From positions 1 through 36,450 of IMG/VR virus record IMGVR_UViG_3300020045_011376: a stretch of DNA of 36,450 bases. One strand, 5' to 3'. Position 1 is the stretch's first letter. Each line of letters begins with the position of its first letter. Below are positions 301 through 35,985 of the stretch, in pieces. The notes under the pieces are model-generated. The model worked only from the letters and a program-made list of their open reading frames with translations. It made no database searches and was not told the DNA's origin. Origin of the DNA: a virus. Taxonomy: Duplodnaviria > Caudoviricetes. Made by a program: the position numbers and the translations under genes.

Positions 301-2259
301 TCAAATGTCCTCAAGGAAGCTGTGCAAATCCGCTCGATCTTCCTTGGGGAGCTTTTTATATTCCTGCCTGCTCGCCTCGGCTTCCCCTGCGTGCCACATC
401 ACCGCTTCTTGCAACGTCCTTGCCCTGCCATCGTGGAGCATATCGATCCTATTGGAGCGCACCGCGTCCCATGCCGATGACCAAAGGATCGATATGTCCC
501 CAGGCCTGAACTGGTTAGGCCGAGAGTCGGTCGACGCTCGCTTAGCTGCAAAGCCTATGAGTGGCGCGGTCCTCCACATCGACGATAGCTTGCCGCCCAT
601 GGAATCCTTCAGCCCTTCGCCCATGTCGTGCAAAAGAAAATCGCTAAATAGCTGGACGTCCTGATTCATCAGTTCGGTGAAGCGGTGCCCGCCCGTCCGA
701 GCACTTGGGATGTGGCATTTCGCGCAGCCGATCTTTCTGAAAGTCAGGCCTCCTCTCATGATGCCATGGCCTTCGGGGTTCATCCTCGGAGGGGGACCTA
801 AGAGAGCTAGATAAGTCGTGATGTCATCAATAGCTGGCTGAAAGAGCTTTCCTTTGCCGCCTTTGCATCCGTTTGAGCAATCGAGCATTGAAAACTTCTC
901 AGTTTGGACACCTAGGTCTGTGGTCATAGCTGACTGGACTTGATCTTCTATTGTGGCTCTTTCTGCCTTATGCCCGAATCTTCCGACTCTCCATTCATCA
1001 TTAGAGACGGTTCCTCCATTATCTTTAGCATACCCCCTAATCGTGTCATCAGGGATTGCCTCAATGAGTCCGAGAGCAACCCACGGCAATGGCCTTCTAG
1101 GACTTGTTCCGAGATTTGATTTATCAAGACCCGAAAGTATATCAAATATTGGTTTCCGTAGTTCAACGCTTTCTCCATCTGAAAAGGCTTCCTTCGAGTA
1201 TTCCCACCTGACGCTAACTGTTCCCTCGGCTTTAGCGCCAGAAGTTTGGACTTGAGATCCAAAGGCCTTGTGTGCGGTAAGGTCGCGGCTATCGGCTGTC
1301 CTTAGGATCGTTGTATCGGTTCGCCCGCTTCCGAGTAGCGCCGATCCGTTGTTAAGGTGACAGCTGACGCAAGCGCCTTGGACGTTATAGGCGGTGCCCT
1401 GATAGCCAGCCCGGTAAGCCCGGTCCCCCTCGAAGAAGAGGCTAGGCTTATCGTCGGACACCTCGCCTACGTGCTGGCCAGTTGTAAAGTCTGTGTGAGC
1501 CCACGCCCTGCCGAAAAGGAAGGCTTGAGCGTTCTCAGCCCTGAGGTTTGTAGCGGCTTGCTCCAAGGCCTTCCACGGCTCGACCCTCGTCGTCACGGTC
1601 GTCATAGAGCCGCCCGAGTAGCGCTCAGGCGATGCCTCGCCGTTGGCTTGCGTCGGATGATCGATCTTCAGGCCAGGCTCGCCTAGCTTGATCCTCACGA
1701 ACTCCGAGTAGTACGCCGATAGATTGTGACCGTTGGCCTGCTTTTGTTTCTTCCAGTCCGGGAAGGATTCGTCGAGAAAAAACCTAACCTCCATCGTAAG
1801 GATCTTGCCCGGCTTCATCGCCTCGCCCGCCGCGTTGAAAGCGCCCTCATCTAGCGTGGCCGTGAAAACCCTGGAATCGCGAACGTGGGTCATTCGGATG
1901 TTGAATAAGAACTTCGAGCGGAGGGTTTCATCTCGGCCCAAGGGATCGCCCGTATAGACCGCGCTGAAATCAGGCCCTCGCGTTGGGATATAGTTCTGAG
2001 GCCACTCAGTCGTGAGGGTGACGGTCAGGCGTTTTTTCCCGGCAGATGTAAAGTCTTCGATCTTTACGGTCGTGCCTCTTCCTTGCCAGTAGAAGGGGTT
2101 ATATTTCGAGAAGTCCATATCGTTCTCGTGGCGTCTTCGTTGTCTAGGCACGAAATCGGTGACCGATACTTGCCCTGTCTGGGCTGGCAGAGGCACGAGG
2201 ACAGGCGTTGAGGCGAAGGCTAGGTCGCATAGAAGTAGGCTCAAAAACAGCAGACGCAT
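301..2259 (-). CDS. Exported di-heme cytochrome c protein, DUF1111/DHOR-like
   Basis: Signal peptide MRLLFLSLLLCDLAFA; two CxxCH motifs (CVSCH, CAKCH); family-like motifs GRFGHKA, FSDFLLHDMG, WRTAPL, LHDGRARTLQEAVMWHAGEA; ATG at 2259 has a GGAG RBS and is preferred over TTG at 2277. Confidence 0.85.
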   Translation of the reverse strand: MRLLFLSLLLCDLAFASTPVLVPLPAQTGQVSVTDFVPRQRRRHENDMDFSKYNPFYWQGRGTTVKIEDFTSAGKKRLTVTLTTEWPQNYIPTRGPDFSAVYTGDPLGRDETLRSKFLFNIRMTHVRDSRVFTATLDEGAFNAAGEAMKPGKILTMEVRFFLDESFPDWKKQKQANGHNLSAYYSEFVRIKLGEPGLKIDHPTQANGEASPERYSGGSMTTVTTRVEPWKALEQAATNLRAENAQAFLFGRAWAHTDFTTGQHVGEVSDDKPSLFFEGDRAYRAGYQGTAYNVQGACVSCHLNNGSALLGSGRTDTTILRTADSRDLTAHKAFGSQVQTSGAKAEGTVSVRWEYSKEAFSDGESVELRKPIFDILSGLDKSNLGTSPRRPLPWVALGLIEAIPDDTIRGYAKDNGGTVSNDEWRVGRFGHKAERATIEDQVQSAMTTDLGVQTEKFSMLDCSNGCKGGKGKLFQPAIDDITTYLALLGPPPRMNPEGHGIMRGGLTFRKIGCAKCHIPSARTGGHRFTELMNQDVQLFSDFLLHDMGEGLKDSMGGKLSSMWRTAPLIGFAAKRASTDSRPNQFRPGDISILWSSAWDAVRSNRIDMLHDGRARTLQEAVMWHAGEAEASRQEYKKLPKEDRADLHSFLEDI

Positions 2260-2275
2260 AGACGGCTCTCCAAGC

Positions 2276-2314
2276 AAAAACCCTGCCCAAACATAGACGC
2301 TCGGGCAGGGTTTT
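2276..2314 (-). terminator. Intrinsic terminator-like hairpin between the two cargo genes
   Basis: AAAACCCTGCCC...GGGCAGGGTTTT inverted repeat; T-run follows on the minus strand. Confidence 0.7.
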
Positions 2315-2333: not shown

Positions 2334-3629
2334 TTAAAGCTTCACCGAAGGGCTCTCGGCGTTAGGTGCGAAGAAGTTCCAAAGCTGATTCCGCTGTCCA
2401 GCAGGATTGCATACCCATTGTACGATCCTTCCCGAGCCAACATCAAGGTCAAGGCACTTGCCAGAATTGACGTTCACGATTTGAAGGTTACCGGCGCCCT
2501 TGTCGACGAGACGGAATTTCTGGGCTGGGCTAGAGTTCCAATCCCATATTTGCATCAAAGCACCGTCTGCCAGAGAGCTACCGGGGACATCGACGAATTT
2601 ATTAGAGCCTGCGCCCTGGAACATGTGCTCGCCCGGGGCGCCTGGTCGCGCGTAGAAGGCTTGAGCGACTGTTTTGTTGCAAGCGTAGATTTGCAGCTTA
2701 AGGCCGTTGGCATTGCCGTTGGACGGGACATCGATGCACTGGCCGTTATAAACCGATCGGATTTGATAGCTGCCAGCAGGCTGGTTACCACCGCCAGCTG
2801 GCGGTGGATTAGTAGGGGGAGGATTGGTAGGGGGGGGAGTAGTGCCGCCACCGTTGTTGGGATAGAGGGAATTGAGACCGATAATATCACCAGCCGAAAG
2901 GCTGTTGTTATTGGCGGGGTCCTTGCAATAGTTCATGACGCTAAAGCGATCGTAAGCAGTGACGAAACGATACTGACCGCCGTTCGGCAATGTCCCCCTC
3001 TGATCGTTGCAAATGGGAGCATCGTTTCTCTCCTGCTCGTGCGCTAGGCCTAGCGCGTGCCCAAACTCGTGGACGACCGTGGATAGCGTATAGTCCACGA
3101 ACCAGGCTGGACGACCTGCTGGCCAGTCGTTTCTGTCGCGACAAACTCTGATCGCCATTGTGCCCGGTCCATCAGCACCACCTAGCTGACCATTGACGGG
3201 ACCGAGGTAGCTAACCCCTCCTCCTGCGCTTCTAGGCTGAGGATTACACGCATGCTCAGGACGAAGGTACATCCTGATTTGCTGAGGCGCATTCATGCCT
3301 TGGCATTTGCCTTGAAAGTTAAAGCCGATGCCAGCCTTGGCGTATTCCTGCGTCAGCTTAGCTTTGAAGTCTTCGATTAAGACCGGGCCTTGCTCAGGAT
3401 TCACGAAACAGACGTTAATGGCTTTAGGGTTCTGCCAGCGTCCTCCGCCTTGGTAGGTGATGGAGCGGCCTTTGATTTCTGTTTCGGGTGCCTTGAAGCC
3501 TTCGCCGTCTTCGGAAAGCTCCTCGGTCCCGCCGATCGAGATAATGGGAGTTGGAGCTTCTGGGATCTTGGGCTTTGCTTGGAGCGATAACGGAAGGAAT
3601 GCTAATGCCAGTAGCGAGATTTTGATCAT
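2334..3629 (-). CDS. Secreted metzincin Zn-metalloprotease with Pro/Thr linker and C-terminal ricin-B lectin domain
   Basis: Signal peptide; HEFGHALGLAHE zinc motif; Met-turn SVMNY; (PPPTN)n linker; QxF/QxW beta-trefoil repeats with CIDV and CLDL. Confidence 0.9.
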   Translation of the reverse strand: MIKISLLALAFLPLSLQAKPKIPEAPTPIISIGGTEELSEDGEGFKAPETEIKGRSITYQGGGRWQNPKAINVCFVNPEQGPVLIEDFKAKLTQEYAKAGIGFNFQGKCQGMNAPQQIRMYLRPEHACNPQPRSAGGGVSYLGPVNGQLGGADGPGTMAIRVCRDRNDWPAGRPAWFVDYTLSTVVHEFGHALGLAHEQERNDAPICNDQRGTLPNGGQYRFVTAYDRFSVMNYCKDPANNNSLSAGDIIGLNSLYPNNGGGTTPPPTNPPPTNPPPAGGGNQPAGSYQIRSVYNGQCIDVPSNGNANGLKLQIYACNKTVAQAFYARPGAPGEHMFQGAGSNKFVDVPGSSLADGALMQIWDWNSSPAQKFRLVDKGAGNLQIVNVNSGKCLDLDVGSGRIVQWVCNPAGQRNQLWNFFAPNAESPSVKL

Positions 3630-26312: not shown

Positions 26313-27266
26313 TCAGACGCCATTCCAGTACAGCTTCTCACGACTGTTGTTCGCTGATTCCTTGGACTGTCCTTTGCTTGACAACTTCACGGCCTTGCCG
26401 ACCGAATAAACAAGCTTGAAACGTTTGTCAGGGATGTTGTATTCGGAGACGTAGACTGGGAAAGGACGAGACATAGCCCAGTCGTAGAATGCCCTGTGAT
26501 CGAATTCCTTAATGTAACCAGCTGTGCCAGCATAAGGGATATCACAGTAGACGACAGAGTTCGGTTTGATCTCTACCTGACGATAGTCTAGCGATGAAAA
26601 TGTCAACCGCTCCAACTGCTGCAAACGCTCCAACTGCTGCAAACGCTCCAACTGCTGCAACTGCTCCAACTGCTCCAACTGCTCCAACTGCTGCAACTGC
26701 TGCAACTGCTGCAACTGCTCCGCGTCAAGCATTTTCCTATCGACATCAAGACCATTCTTCTTTCTTAAGAATGTCACCCTTTGCCTTTGATAAAATCTCC
26801 GATCTTTAATCGATCTGACTTCATTGGGCCAAACAGAAAAACCTAGAATCTCTTTCGCCAAAGCATCGAACTGATCGAATACGACAGCCATGTGCATGGA
26901 TTTTTTAAGAGGCTCGACATCTTTCCCGAAAAGATAATTTTTCTGATTGTTTCCGAACGACCATATCAACCTAATATAAGCGTCAGAGTTTTTTTCTGCA
27001 AAAAACCTCTCTCTAGAAATCCATTCGGGTCTATAGTCGCCGCCATATTCCCCCGCGATAGCTCTCTTTACTAGGTCTGCTGTCGTTGATTCAATCTCGT
27101 TATAATGAAACGTTTTATATTTATGAGACCTATGCTTAAGCATGAAGTGTGAGACAGAAAAACCACCCCCGAATAGGTCGTAGAAATTATCGGCTGTAGG
27201 CAGGTTCAAGGCGATAGATTCAACGATGTCAGACTTTGATCCCATATAAGGAATACCGAACTTCAC
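26313..27266 (-). CDS. DNA adenine methyltransferase (Dam/D12-like) with LQQ/LEQ/LER repeat insert
   Basis: PYMGSK, DLFGGG (SAM binding), YCDIPY (DPPY variant), VYVSEY. Confidence 0.88.
   Translation of the reverse strand: MKFGIPYMGSKSDIVESIALNLPTADNFYDLFGGGFSVSHFMLKHRSHKYKTFHYNEIESTTADLVKRAIAGEYGGDYRPEWISRERFFAEKNSDAYIRLIWSFGNNQKNYLFGKDVEPLKKSMHMAVVFDQFDALAKEILGFSVWPNEVRSIKDRRFYQRQRVTFLRKKNGLDVDRKMLDAEQLQQLQQLQQLEQLEQLEQLQQLERLQQLERLQQLERLTFSSLDYRQVEIKPNSVVYCDIPYAGTAGYIKEFDHRAFYDWAMSRPFPVYVSEYNIPDKRFKLVYSVGKAVKLSSKGQSKESANNSREKLYWNGV
26608..26720. repeat. In-frame 9-bp tandem repeat in methylase
   Basis: CTCCAACTG / CTGCAACTG / CTGCAAACG units. Confidence 0.9.
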
Positions 27267-28097: not shown

Positions 28098-28227
28098 GGA
28101 TTTTCCTTCATTGGGTAGGTGAGGGAAAATGATAACAGGATGGCGCGAGATGAAAAAGGCATATCTGTTTTGACTGTAATTATTTTTAAGTGGGCTTTTT
28201 GAAAGTTTTGGTGCATGCAAGTAGCAG

Positions 28228-28276
28228 AAATAAAAAACCCCCAGACACCGACAAGCACTTGGGGTTTTTATTTTTA
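28228..28276. terminator. Bidirectional terminator-like hairpin; may instead be the first stem of the ncRNA
   Basis: AAAAACCCC...GGGGTTTTT flanked by A- and T-runs; its loop is complementary to 28488-28495. Confidence 0.55.
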
Positions 28277-28790
28277 TTCGACTCAGCTACGGAATAACTT
28301 CGTCTTGCTTTTAATGCATCATGCACGACCCCTAAAGCAAGCGAAATCCATCCAAAGGCTATATCGAAACGAGCGGAATTAGCCTATCTCGTGAAAAACT
28401 CAGGCTTCCCTTGGTAACTTTCCCCCCAAGATAATTTACAGGGAAAGACAGTGAACCTCATTAAAAGCAAAAGGGTTCATCAAGATGGTCGGTGTGAGCT
28501 TGTGGGTTAATAGACAGGGCTGACGTACACGAGTAAAGCAAATGAAAGAAACCCCGCTCAGTTAACAGCCCCCTATCGATTCACGTCCACGCTAGTAAGA
28601 GCGGTAAGCACAAATCTAGGATTGAAGATCCGGCATTTGTTTGTTTGCTTTGGTCATGTAATTGCCTTTTGAATACTCCGCTGGCAGGAGGAGGATAAGG
28701 CTTACCGCTCAACGCTGGTCTACATAGTCCCACAACGATGCGTCGGAAAGAGGCAATCGTAATGGGGTTCTATATCTTGAAACTGCAAGA
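28230..28790 (+). ncRNA. Putative large structured non-coding RNA (~550 nt); boundaries approximate
   Basis: No ORF of 60 aa or more; over ten complementary segment pairs, including perfect 11-12 bp long-range ones; G-U pairs favour the + strand. Confidence 0.7.
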
Positions 28791-28914
28791 CTTATAATAG
28801 TCAGTCAATTATTACTTTTCTGTAAGCGCATAGCTATCTACTAAAGGTTTTTCGAGATTGGCCGATAAGCTTTGTATGGAACCAATACCGGGACCAAAAA
28901 CAAAGGAGACGAAA

Positions 28915-29094
28915 ATGCTGCAATTCATCGACCACGAAGGAAACTGGATCATGATAAACCCATCTCACATTACGAGCTACAATGCGGTAATAAGCGAAGC
29001 CTTGGGAGCGGTCATGTATAGGCTTCGACTTTTGAATGGCGATTCATTCATAGTCGAGACTGAACACAGCTTCTTTAAAGCGATGAATGGCTAA
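28915..29094 (+). CDS. 59-aa protein, FlbD/SwrD-like small beta fold
   Basis: AAGGAG RBS; WIMINPSHITSY...LRLLNGDSFIV pattern; only convincing + strand gene in this part of the genome. Confidence 0.65.
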   Translation: MLQFIDHEGNWIMINPSHITSYNAVISEALGAVMYRLRLLNGDSFIVETEHSFFKAMNG

Positions 29095-29312
29095 GGCCTG
29101 GGAGGCCGAAAGGCCTTCTGTTCCGTCTTGACCTTGTCCCTTGGCTTCATCTTAAGACAAAGCTTGCACGTCACCTGCTCCCAGTCATCCGTCAACTCCT
29201 TCGAGGGAAGGTGACAGGCCGCTTGATTTCTGTCCTGGCGAAACACTCCAAGTGCGGTTGAGCGCTTATGGGTCTTGGGTTTGTGGTATCGATTGTTCTC
29301 TTTCACCCACAA
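29091..29312 (-). CDS. Small putative zinc-finger protein
   Basis: H...C...VTCKLC. Confidence 0.6.
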   Translation of the reverse strand: MWVKENNRYHKPKTHKRSTALGVFRQDRNQAACHLPSKELTDDWEQVTCKLCLKMKPRDKVKTEQKAFRPPRP

Positions 29313-33059: not shown

Positions 33060-33490
33060 TCGACCGCACTTGCTTTTTTCATTTCCTCATCGAAACAAAC
33101 ATCACATGATTCAAAGGCATCTCTCGCAAATCCAACTCGCTGAGGAGTAGTAAACTGAAACCATTTTTTCCAAGATGTTTCCTCGTCATATCGGTCGGGA
33201 TTAGCGAGGACAAATAGAGTTCGTTCACACCAATCTCTAAGCTCTGCAATTGATCTTTGACTAAGTGCGTGACGAATCGGATTTCTGTCCCCGCTATATC
33301 TGCCGCCCTTGTATTCCCTGATTGTAACGGTTGGAATTCCCCCATCATGCTCTATTGGGGGAGTCATAAAATGCAGCTCGATTCCATCGAGATCCTCTTG
33401 CAATTCTTCTCCACTCCAGATCATCGCCACACTGGCACGTTCAGTTGGGAAATACCTAGGCCGCTCTAAATCGCTCTCAGTTCGCTTCAT
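33050..33490 (-). CDS. Hypothetical protein downstream of initiator
   Basis: ATGA overlap with the initiator; no Walker A seen. Confidence 0.7.
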   Translation of the reverse strand: MKRTESDLERPRYFPTERASVAMIWSGEELQEDLDGIELHFMTPPIEHDGGIPTVTIREYKGGRYSGDRNPIRHALSQRSIAELRDWCERTLFVLANPDRYDEETSWKKWFQFTTPQRVGFARDAFESCDVCFDEEMKKASAVECK

Positions 33491-34320
33491 TGCATTAACC
33501 CTTCCTGGTCTTCGTTAAGCCTATTTGATCGCCACAGAACAAAGGTTTTGTCCCTCTCAGCGGCACTTAAGAATCTCACTTCGTGTTCTTCAAACTTGGA
33601 AATGAATTCGTCGATGTCTTTTAGGGGAATTCGGCTTTTGATGAGTTTCATTACCCACGCCTGCGAAAATGAAAATTCCTTGTCATTGGAAACCTTGTTA
33701 ACTCGACGCGCCATTGATTTGACATCCTCTGAGATATCCACAGAATTTTCGCAGTAGGGAATTCTTCTAGGGAATAACTGGGATTCTTTAGGGATAGAAT
33801 AGGGATCTTCTATATAAAGATCACTGTCATCAGATTGATGACAGTTCTTACTCAAAATGATGACAGTGGTGTCATCAGATTGATGACAGTTCGTATTCAA
33901 AATGATGACAGTGGTGTCATCAGATTGATGACAGTTGGATTTTCTATTCACAGGCCTGTGGACAACAAAAACCTGCCTGAAAAGCTGATCAGCAAATATT
34001 GGATGGAGAAAATAAGTCTTTTCTGCGCCTATATCGCCAAATGCCAAAATCAACTTTTTTGCCACTAGGCTGTCAAACAATCTAGTCAGGTTGTTTCTTA
34101 GAATACCCGTCGCATCCGACCAGTCGGTAAAACTCCGATTTATTCCGGCAGTCAAATGAGTGATATATTTTGGCCTAGGCATAAACTCGACGAAGCAATA
34201 CATCAGCATCGCTTCGTTGCCAGTCATCTTGTAGGCTTTTTTTGATTTGATTATTTGCCTGACCACGTCCCCATAACTGAGAAACATAGCGCCTTGCTGC
34301 ACTTGACTTTGAGAAGTCAT
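33487..34320 (-). CDS. Replication initiator (lambda O-like, N-terminal winged HTH)
   Basis: SFTDWSDATGILRNNLTRLFDSLVAKKLI wHTH; internal repeated NCHQSDDTTVIIL linker corresponds to iterons. Confidence 0.75.
   Translation of the reverse strand: MTSQSQVQQGAMFLSYGDVVRQIIKSKKAYKMTGNEAMLMYCFVEFMPRPKYITHLTAGINRSFTDWSDATGILRNNLTRLFDSLVAKKLILAFGDIGAEKTYFLHPIFADQLFRQVFVVHRPVNRKSNCHQSDDTTVIILNTNCHQSDDTTVIILSKNCHQSDDSDLYIEDPYSIPKESQLFPRRIPYCENSVDISEDVKSMARRVNKVSNDKEFSFSQAWVMKLIKSRIPLKDIDEFISKFEEHEVRFLSAAERDKTFVLWRSNRLNEDQEGLMQ
33823..33936. other. Putative replication origin (palindromic iterons, 45-bp period)
   Basis: TGTCATCAGATTGATGACAGTT at 33825, 33870 and 33915, plus two intervening TGATGACAG. 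Confidence 0.78.
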
Positions 34321-34406: not shown

Positions 34407-34557
34407 GTAGTAAGACACTTGAGTTATAGCCTATTTACGCCCTTGACCTGCCTAAGTAAAGAAAAACCTACATGCATCAAAGCAATCACTATCGAAATGA
34501 CCTGAAGGGCTTGCACAGCATACGTTTCGATCACCGCGCGATACGCAGCAATGCATG

Positions 34558-34593
34558 CGCGTAAATGGACGCGTAAATGGACGCGCAAATACT
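34558..34593. repeat. 12-bp direct repeats, possible operator
   Basis: CGCGTAAATGGA twice plus CGCGCAAATACT upstream of the RHH gene. Confidence 0.6.
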
Positions 34594-34672
34594 GCGCGTC
34601 AGCTATCTGTTTGCGTCTTTGGTGTAAACATGTAAATACATATTGGTGCGTTTAGACACTTCAAAGTGAGGA

Positions 34673-35769: not shown

Positions 35770-35985
35770 ATGGTTTTTGAGAGAAAATTAAAGCGACACA
35801 AGGCGAGATGCGATGAGGTTGACGAGGAGATCATGAAGCTGCATGGTACGGGATTGAGGATCATCCAAATAGCCAGAACGATCCCTATCGGCGAACGATG
35901 CGTTCGAAATTGTCTTCGTGAAAGAGGCCTCGTGCCACCCTTAAAGCCTAGAGACATCACCGGACAAATGGAGAGAGTAAAATGA
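35770..35985 (+). CDS. Small HTH protein
   Basis: IMKLHGTGLRIIQIARTIPIGERCVRNCLRERG. Confidence 0.65.
   Translation: MVFERKLKRHKARCDEVDEEIMKLHGTGLRIIQIARTIPIGERCVRNCLRERGLVPPLKPRDITGQMERVK

Follow-up and report, generated by a model that had tools for sequence, protein, structure and literature searches.

The window analyzed here is an entire virus record of 36,450 nucleotides, a complete 36-kb genome with direct terminal repeats whose layout, judged from PHROG and Pfam matches, is siphovirus-like. By the same matches, the minus strand to the left of the element under study carries tail, tape measure, capsid, terminase, methyltransferase, and ParB-like genes, and to the right lie small open reading frames (ORFs), an AraC-type regulator, and RecT; in the window, the element is therefore flanked by packaging and structural genes on one side and by small early, replication, and recombination genes on the other. 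As the original prediction held, the interval at 28221-28857 is the longest stretch of the window without ORFs of at least 65 amino acids. ARAGORN found no tRNA or tmRNA genes in the window, and tmRNA was rejected as an identity for the element on that basis.

Other features of this genome deserve mention. Two accessory genes at 301-2277 (-) and 2334-3629 (-), missing from every relative tested, encode a di-haem oxidoreductase (Pfam DHOR, E value of 4.9e-35) and a zinc-peptidase-like protein that carries lectin repeats of the ricin-B type. The gene at 26313-27266 (-) encodes an adenine methyltransferase of the D12 class into which a low-complexity Q/L/E repeat is inserted. To the right of the element lies ORF 28858-29094, a lone plus-strand ORF with a strong ribosome site, for whose product no homolog of 42 to 137 residues was found among 5.8 billion proteins. 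The perfect match upstream of it to the sigma-28 (FliA) promoter consensus (Table 1) is the sole exact match in the window; no match with up to 2 mismatches was present in L078, 20 kb of the contig that holds the second copy of the element described below. The match suggests a flagellated host. Where the plus-strand ORF meets the early operon, a GC-rich hairpin with a GAAA loop was seen by eye at 29100-29120 and is likely a terminator. A putative replication initiator is encoded at 33487-34320; its repeated peptide likely reflects origin iterons, and short tandem repeats lie nearby (34540-34600).

All 16 pairings of the original prediction were recovered in the sequence, although two of them (28299-311/28334-45 and 28500-15/28718-35) form only with a bulge or internal loop. 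The prediction had missed a hairpin of 9 bp (28233-41/28261-69) as well as two candidate H-type pseudoknots, at 28369-28406 and 28410-28447. The element contains 20 perfect Watson-Crick helices of at least 7 bp, whereas dinucleotide shuffles have 8.05 ± 2.8 and none of 150 reaches 20; it also has two helices of at least 11 bp, a number matched by 0 of 150 shuffles. This helix density is unexceptional within the genome: of 66 segments of the window, the one at 34161 is higher for 7-bp helices and the one at 33601 is higher for 8-bp helices, the latter also with two 11-bp helices. The segments covering the putative replication initiator and its neighboring repeats top the helix counts of the genome. 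Minimum free energy (MFE) folding gave z scores of -2.11 on the plus strand and -2.49 on the minus strand, so that the element folds better than shuffled sequence, but only modestly, and the single sequence does not fix the strand. With equally helix-rich segments elsewhere and z scores of this size, the single sequence suggests an RNA without proving one. Both observations would also suit an explanation in which no RNA is involved and the locus holds conserved DNA signals (promoters, a terminator, an origin) together with chance complementarity.

A homolog was identified at positions 947 to 376 of locus L002 (record G001; nhmmer E value of 8.5e-44), among 17 loci found with the terminase. Its phage is the closest relative known, with a capsid protein 86% identical to that of the window and the next proteins at most 80% identical. 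In a hand-anchored alignment, the two copies of the element are ~61% identical overall, 75% in the left half and ~50% in the right half; the value for the left half, over 281 nt, exceeds that of the capsid and terminase gene blocks (71 to 72%). Indels of 1 to 2 nt are spread along the whole alignment, so the copies have no reading frame in common, which argues against a coding function. The homolog sits elsewhere in its genome: one flank carries an inverted helix-turn-helix (HTH) gene, a small ORF resembling a repressor, and ERF, and the opposite flank carries small ORFs. The two phages share no gene next to the element. The position between early and late regions, to which the original prediction had drawn attention, is thus true of the window but not conserved in the homolog. 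The two halves of the element remain adjacent, with about equal spacing, at both genomic sites. The HTH gene (L019 2466-2714) is 61% identical to window positions 35770-35985 but inverted; its similarity stops at residue 57, the boundary of the RNA, and its frame continues into the element.

The predicted helices had been named before the homolog was known and can therefore be used as predictions. Six of them (PK-A, P8, PK-C, PK-E, P12, and PK-D; Table 1) are kept in the homolog with compensatory changes, whereas 28356-61/28380-85, 28500-15/28718-35, and the perfect 12-bp pairing 28305-16/28459-70 are not. In the hand-anchored alignment, these same six, all from the original prediction, are the Watson-Crick helices of at least 5 bp with two-sided changes. 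Exact-register helices of at least 6 bp with at least 2 two-sided changes numbered 5, whereas 60 shuffles gave 0.13 (maximum, 1). Of the 27 pairs in the four long-range helices (PK-A, PK-C, PK-D, and PK-E), 11 have changed between the copies, and every one of these can still form (20 of 200,000 random redraws); with a cautious register for PK-E, whose register is ambiguous, 9 of 9 changed pairs still pair (115 of 300,000 redraws). Anchors and registers of this alignment were set partly by hand, from the helices, and two copies are too few for covariation statistics in the proper sense. A curated set of 112 pairs comprises 81 identical pairs, 20 with two-sided changes, and 1 broken pair, together with 7 one-sided changes and 2 invariant wobbles valid only on the plus strand and 1 pair valid only on the minus strand; this set leans to the plus strand because it was drawn from plus-strand folds. 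When each copy is folded independently by MFE, with no hand choice involved, the agreement between the folds is 0.65 on the plus strand (null, 0.16 ± 0.09; 0 of 60 shuffles) and 0.33 on the minus strand (4 of 60).

With an automatic alignment, a blind test of all 16 predicted helices was modest and favored the minus strand (reached by 26 of 1,000 shuffles on the plus strand and 1 of 1,000 on the minus strand), and PK-A was the only one individually significant (P value of 0.004); it was in this test that the three helices listed above as not kept failed. RNAalifold gave z scores for the left half of -7.0 on the plus strand and -5.5 on the minus strand and, on a mis-anchored alignment, -0.5 for the right half. 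A loose test of helix sharing did not reach significance (4 of 40, plus strand), and pair shuffling (78 of 500) has no power with two alignment rows. The folding z scores of the homolog were weak (-1.85 on the plus strand and -0.64 on the minus strand), and a loose three-pseudoknot descriptor proved too unspecific, with chance matches in many fetched loci. That last result, like the modest z scores, sits comfortably with conserved DNA signals and chance complementarity; two-sided changes in helices named in advance, fold congruence far above that of shuffles, and G-U-tolerant changes do not, and we consider an element without RNA very improbable. The element is very probably a real structured RNA. 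The features of the model are collected in Table 1.

Table 1. Predicted RNA features of the element and the neighboring promoter match (window coordinates)
Feature	Position	Strand	Remarks
Large structured RNA (predicted), ~553 nt	28226..28778	+ (likely)	Ends from conservation
P1 hairpin, 19-nt loop	28228..28273		Terminator-like on both strands
PK-A, P1 loop 28245-52 with 28488-95	28245..28495	+	Closes left domain; 2 adjacent two-sided changes
P2/P3 long irregular hairpin, core 28304-08/28337-41	28277..28368	+	Predicted independently in both copies
Predicted H-type pseudoknot 1, 28369-73/28388-92 crossed by 28381-85/28402-06	28369..28406	+	A-rich loop 3
Predicted H-type pseudoknot 2, 28410-14/28426-30 crossed by 28418-24/28441-47	28410..28447	+	
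P8 hairpin, stem 28452-58/28473-79, A-rich 14-nt loop	28451..28480	+	2 two-sided changes, one U-G to C-G, one invariant G-U
P9-P11 long irregular hairpin	28501..28585	+	Predicted in both copies
PK-C, loop-loop, 28535-41 with 28645-51	28535..28651	+	3 adjacent two-sided changes in 7 pairs
PK-E, 28550-56 with 28763-69	28550..28769	+	7 bp in both copies; 1 to 4 two-sided changes by register
P12, 28599-609/28700-10	28599..28710	+	Closes junction with hairpins 28619-31 and 28674-97; ~4 two-sided changes; register hand-set
PK-D, 28661-66 with 28752-57	28661..28757	+	2 two-sided changes in 6 pairs
Sigma-28 (FliA) promoter match, perfect	28842-28868	+	Upstream of ORF 28858-29094; outside conserved element

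The model would comprise two domains, a left one (28226-28497) closed by PK-A and a right one (28500-28778) locked by PK-C, PK-D, and PK-E. The left domain contains P1, whose loop supplies one strand of PK-A, a long irregular hairpin, the two predicted H-type pseudoknots, and P8. In P1, 11 of 12 pairs are identical in the homolog and the remaining one is A-C there, which corresponds to G-U on the minus strand; the adjoining U-tract is invariant on the minus strand. The core pairs of P2/P3 are invariant and show no covariation. In pseudoknot 1, the second stem has one two-sided change and one G-C to G-U change, and the first stem is invariant. Pseudoknot 2 lies within the longest invariant block; its 12 pairs are all invariant and so show no covariation. 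The originally predicted helix 28406-11/28440-45 is an equally invariant alternative to it. In the right domain, P9-P11 contains one broken pair, one two-sided change, and three one-sided changes that only the plus strand tolerates, and its apical loop (28535-56) supplies the 5′ strands of both PK-C and PK-E. The spacing of PK-D to PK-C and PK-E is identical in both copies. PK-E competes with a predicted 3′ hairpin (28724-73), and in both copies the 3′ end is predicted to form either PK-D and PK-E or else a long local hairpin, alternatives that in the model may perhaps act as a switch.

The assignment of the RNA to the plus strand in the original prediction is likely to be right. Fold congruence for the whole element was 0.57 to 0.70 on the plus strand versus 0.21 to 0.37 on the minus strand, and that for the right half was 0.58 to 0.69 versus 0.33 to 0.38. 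The left half gave 0.94 on the minus strand (0 of 100 shuffles) versus 0.52 on the plus strand (13 of 100), a plus-strand value that may be depressed because MFE folding cannot combine P1 with PK-A. Covarying helices found by Watson-Crick pairing only are extended by wobble pairs 5 times on the plus strand and once on the minus strand; invariant helices (6 versus 9 wobble extensions) prefer neither. Conserved bases of the left half outside the tabulated helices are A-rich on the plus strand (45 A, 30 T). The homolog's folding z scores (-1.85 versus -0.64) likewise speak for the plus strand. No plus-strand promoter or 3′ terminator was found for the element, and no promoter was identified on the minus strand either; P1 is terminator-like although it stands at the presumed 5′ end of the plus-strand RNA.

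The main rival to a plus-strand RNA, which we regard as unlikely, is a minus-strand, cis-acting leader. Transcription started in upstream genes would cross the element and be terminated by P1 with its U-tract, and PK-A, by engaging the P1 loop with 28488-95, would allow the polymerase to continue into the late operon, in the manner of an attenuator or of a put-like antiterminator RNA. The strand evidence that points to the minus strand (the blind helix test, the left-half congruence, the invariant U-tract that follows P1, and the orientation of the operons around the element) bears directly on this reading. The one change in P1 is G-U compatible on that strand, either left half folded on the minus strand has its 5′ segment paired into the terminator hairpin, and in both phages the minus direction heads into a series of genes, the last of which serve packaging and structure. 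HK022 put RNAs, EAR RNA, and riboswitch-type attenuators resemble the minus strand of the element in having a terminator hairpin before a long operon and an alternative pairing, but they are far smaller, the element has no Rfam match, and most of the strand evidence favors plus. A leader also fits poorly with the congruence of the right half and the whole element on the plus strand and with the wobble extensions of the covarying helices. On the minus strand, pseudoknot 2 would, from its geometry, need a 3-nt loop to span a 7-bp stem. Moreover, the next gene differs between the two phages, and at least 49 related records lack a match to the left half.

The opposite strand preferences of the two halves in fold congruence could instead mean that two elements lie side by side, a minus-strand terminator or regulatory RNA at 28226-28497 and a plus-strand three-pseudoknot RNA of ~280 nt at 28500-28778. 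The halves also differ in identity (75% versus 50%), and among the top helices no covarying pair joins them. We nevertheless find two elements improbable: the halves are adjacent with near-equal spacing at two sites, there is no room for promoters between them, and RNAalifold scores the left half better on the plus strand than on the minus strand.

Known families do not account for the element. Against Rfam 15, the check proposed with the original prediction, neither copy matches any family at the gathering score; at E values up to 10, the copy in the window has only three weak leader or lncRNA matches, at the left edge, and the homolog has none. Core models of group I and group II introns, HEARO, RNase P, OLE, and small ribozymes in Rfam matched neither copy. 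Comparison by eye with motifs of the group II domain 5, group I P/Q/R/S, HDV-like, preQ1-I, and ToxI kinds led us to drop the resemblances considered. An intron was likewise rejected, since the element is intergenic in the window and, by eye, abuts a gene without a second exon in the homolog. These results weigh against a catalytic or mobile RNA (a new ribozyme or an intron-like RNA) that moved between sites, a reading to which we give little credence. Its attractions are the nonsyntenic placement in two close phages, a compact three-pseudoknot core, and the right end of the homolog, which abuts the inverted HTH gene where the similarity of that gene ends and its tail reads into the element. 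Yet no gene is interrupted in the window, no reverse transcriptase, transposase, or integrase occurs among the 44 window proteins scanned, no Rfam ribozyme or intron matched at E values up to 10, and the group I, group II, and HDV-like motifs do not, by eye, suit both copies. With six predicted helices kept through compensatory changes and no Rfam match, the claim of a large, multi-pseudoknotted RNA of unassigned class stands.

Searches for a third member found none; the homolog, in the closest relative, was the only further copy. Exact-pattern scans of viral contigs with 4 patterns returned 1, 3, 10, and 61 loci, of which nhmmer supported only the homolog's contig; 1 pattern gave 12 loci in metagenomes, and 1 gave 2 loci in GTDB genomes, without a new member by nhmmer. 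One locus that looked similar (L094) was rejected as antisense to a coding gene. BLASTN against GenBank phages and plasmids gave two 38-nt chance matches and otherwise none. Among relatives found by terminase or capsid, 1 of 36 records had a long BLAST match, and 5 others had matches of merely 14 to 22 nt. A left-half covariance model found only the two known copies in 49 sources (696 kb) and 50 records (of 58 loci), with no match in at least 49 related phage records, 14 of them near-complete; nhmmer over 223 loci (1.98 Mb) also returned only the two. ORF-free gaps of the relatives showed no similarity to the element, and the 52-amino-acid neighbor used as a query yielded no confirmed locus. 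An ORF-free contig end (L088 1-833; record G017) has 12 perfect helices of at least 8 bp, several of them long range; it has no Rfam match, is unrelated to the element, and is possibly another structured RNA. No antisense targets of at least 10 nt for the five invariant blocks were found in either phage. What is new here is the family and its setting, known from two copies in uncultured phages. Literature searches turned up no description of the element, nor did the portion covered of the supplements to the virus RNA catalogue PMC10690425, where a listing is possible.

A divergent ROOL or GOLLD RNA, suggested in the original prediction, gained no support. The ROOL model (RF03087; gathering score, 99.1 bits) had no match at E values up to 10 in the genome or in either copy, and a true ROOL used as a control scored 130.4 bits. 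The GOLLD model (RF02032), against which a conserved 3′ domain should score (150 bits), matched neither copy and 0 of 31 related records, a comparison run without a known GOLLD scored as a control; phage LBR48, sought as that control, gave no match. ROOL nevertheless resembles the element (PMC5737381; PMC12286853): it is phage-borne and of similar size (~580 nt versus ~553 nt), has several pseudoknots and few invariant bases, contains long, irregular helices whose loops interact, and has a function that is unknown. The size class agrees, but the topology differs, with three pseudoknots in ROOL and four covarying long-range pairings here, and the ends of ROOL are joined by a long closing helix (Rfam consensus), whereas the element has no long end-to-end helix common to both copies. 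GOLLD (PMC12286853; PMC12990946) is likewise a phage-borne ornate RNA with separate 5′ and 3′ domains and kissing loops, but it often exceeds 800 nt, and its 3′ domain is the more conserved, whereas in the element it is the 5′ half on the plus strand (75% versus 50%). ROOL and GOLLD often, though not obligatorily, lie beside tRNAs, of which the genome of the element has none. By analogy, the element likely behaves like ROOL and GOLLD while being a member of neither as defined, and it is probably a new class of large ornate phage RNA.

The reading that we prefer, though tentatively and at somewhat less than even confidence, is that the conserved noncoding element is a stand-alone plus-strand RNA of two knotted domains that self-assembles into a ROOL/GOLLD-like oligomer and serves as a scaffold or decoy. 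The element would be transcribed from the plus strand as an RNA of ~550 nt. The copies share no neighbor gene, lack antisense targets, and have selected loop-loop pairs, so a free RNA whose fold is its function is most likely; differing flanking genes in the two phages are as expected of such an RNA. We moderately favor action in trans. Self-assembly is possible but doubtful, being drawn from analogy: ROOL and GOLLD form protein-free cages, in which pairs once read as pseudoknots are intermolecular (PMC12286853). Loop-loop pairs could similarly drive protein-free assembly of the element into an oligomer, with some of PK-A, PK-C, PK-D, and PK-E forming between copies. Purely by the same analogy, a stable particle might act during infection as a scaffold or as a decoy that soaks up host antiphage nucleases or RNA-binding factors. 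A quite unlikely extension of the preferred reading would make the element a third, unrelated phage RNA cage class and a movable module of a small tRNA-less siphovirus, with a 3′ end that switches between the long hairpin and the three-pseudoknot core and an opposite strand that is a terminator gating the late operon, both strands being selected for structure.

Large ornate RNAs are rare in bacteria and phages, and what they do is still an open question; PMC12286853 asks whether cage formation is common among them. If the element proves to be a new class of different topology, carried by a tRNA-less phage of 36 kb whose relatives do without it, it would put that question to a direct cryo-EM test and would weaken the view that the purpose of such RNAs is to hold tRNAs. 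Should the element instead be a leader of 550 nt gating late genes, phage development would have an RNA-based switch of unusual size.
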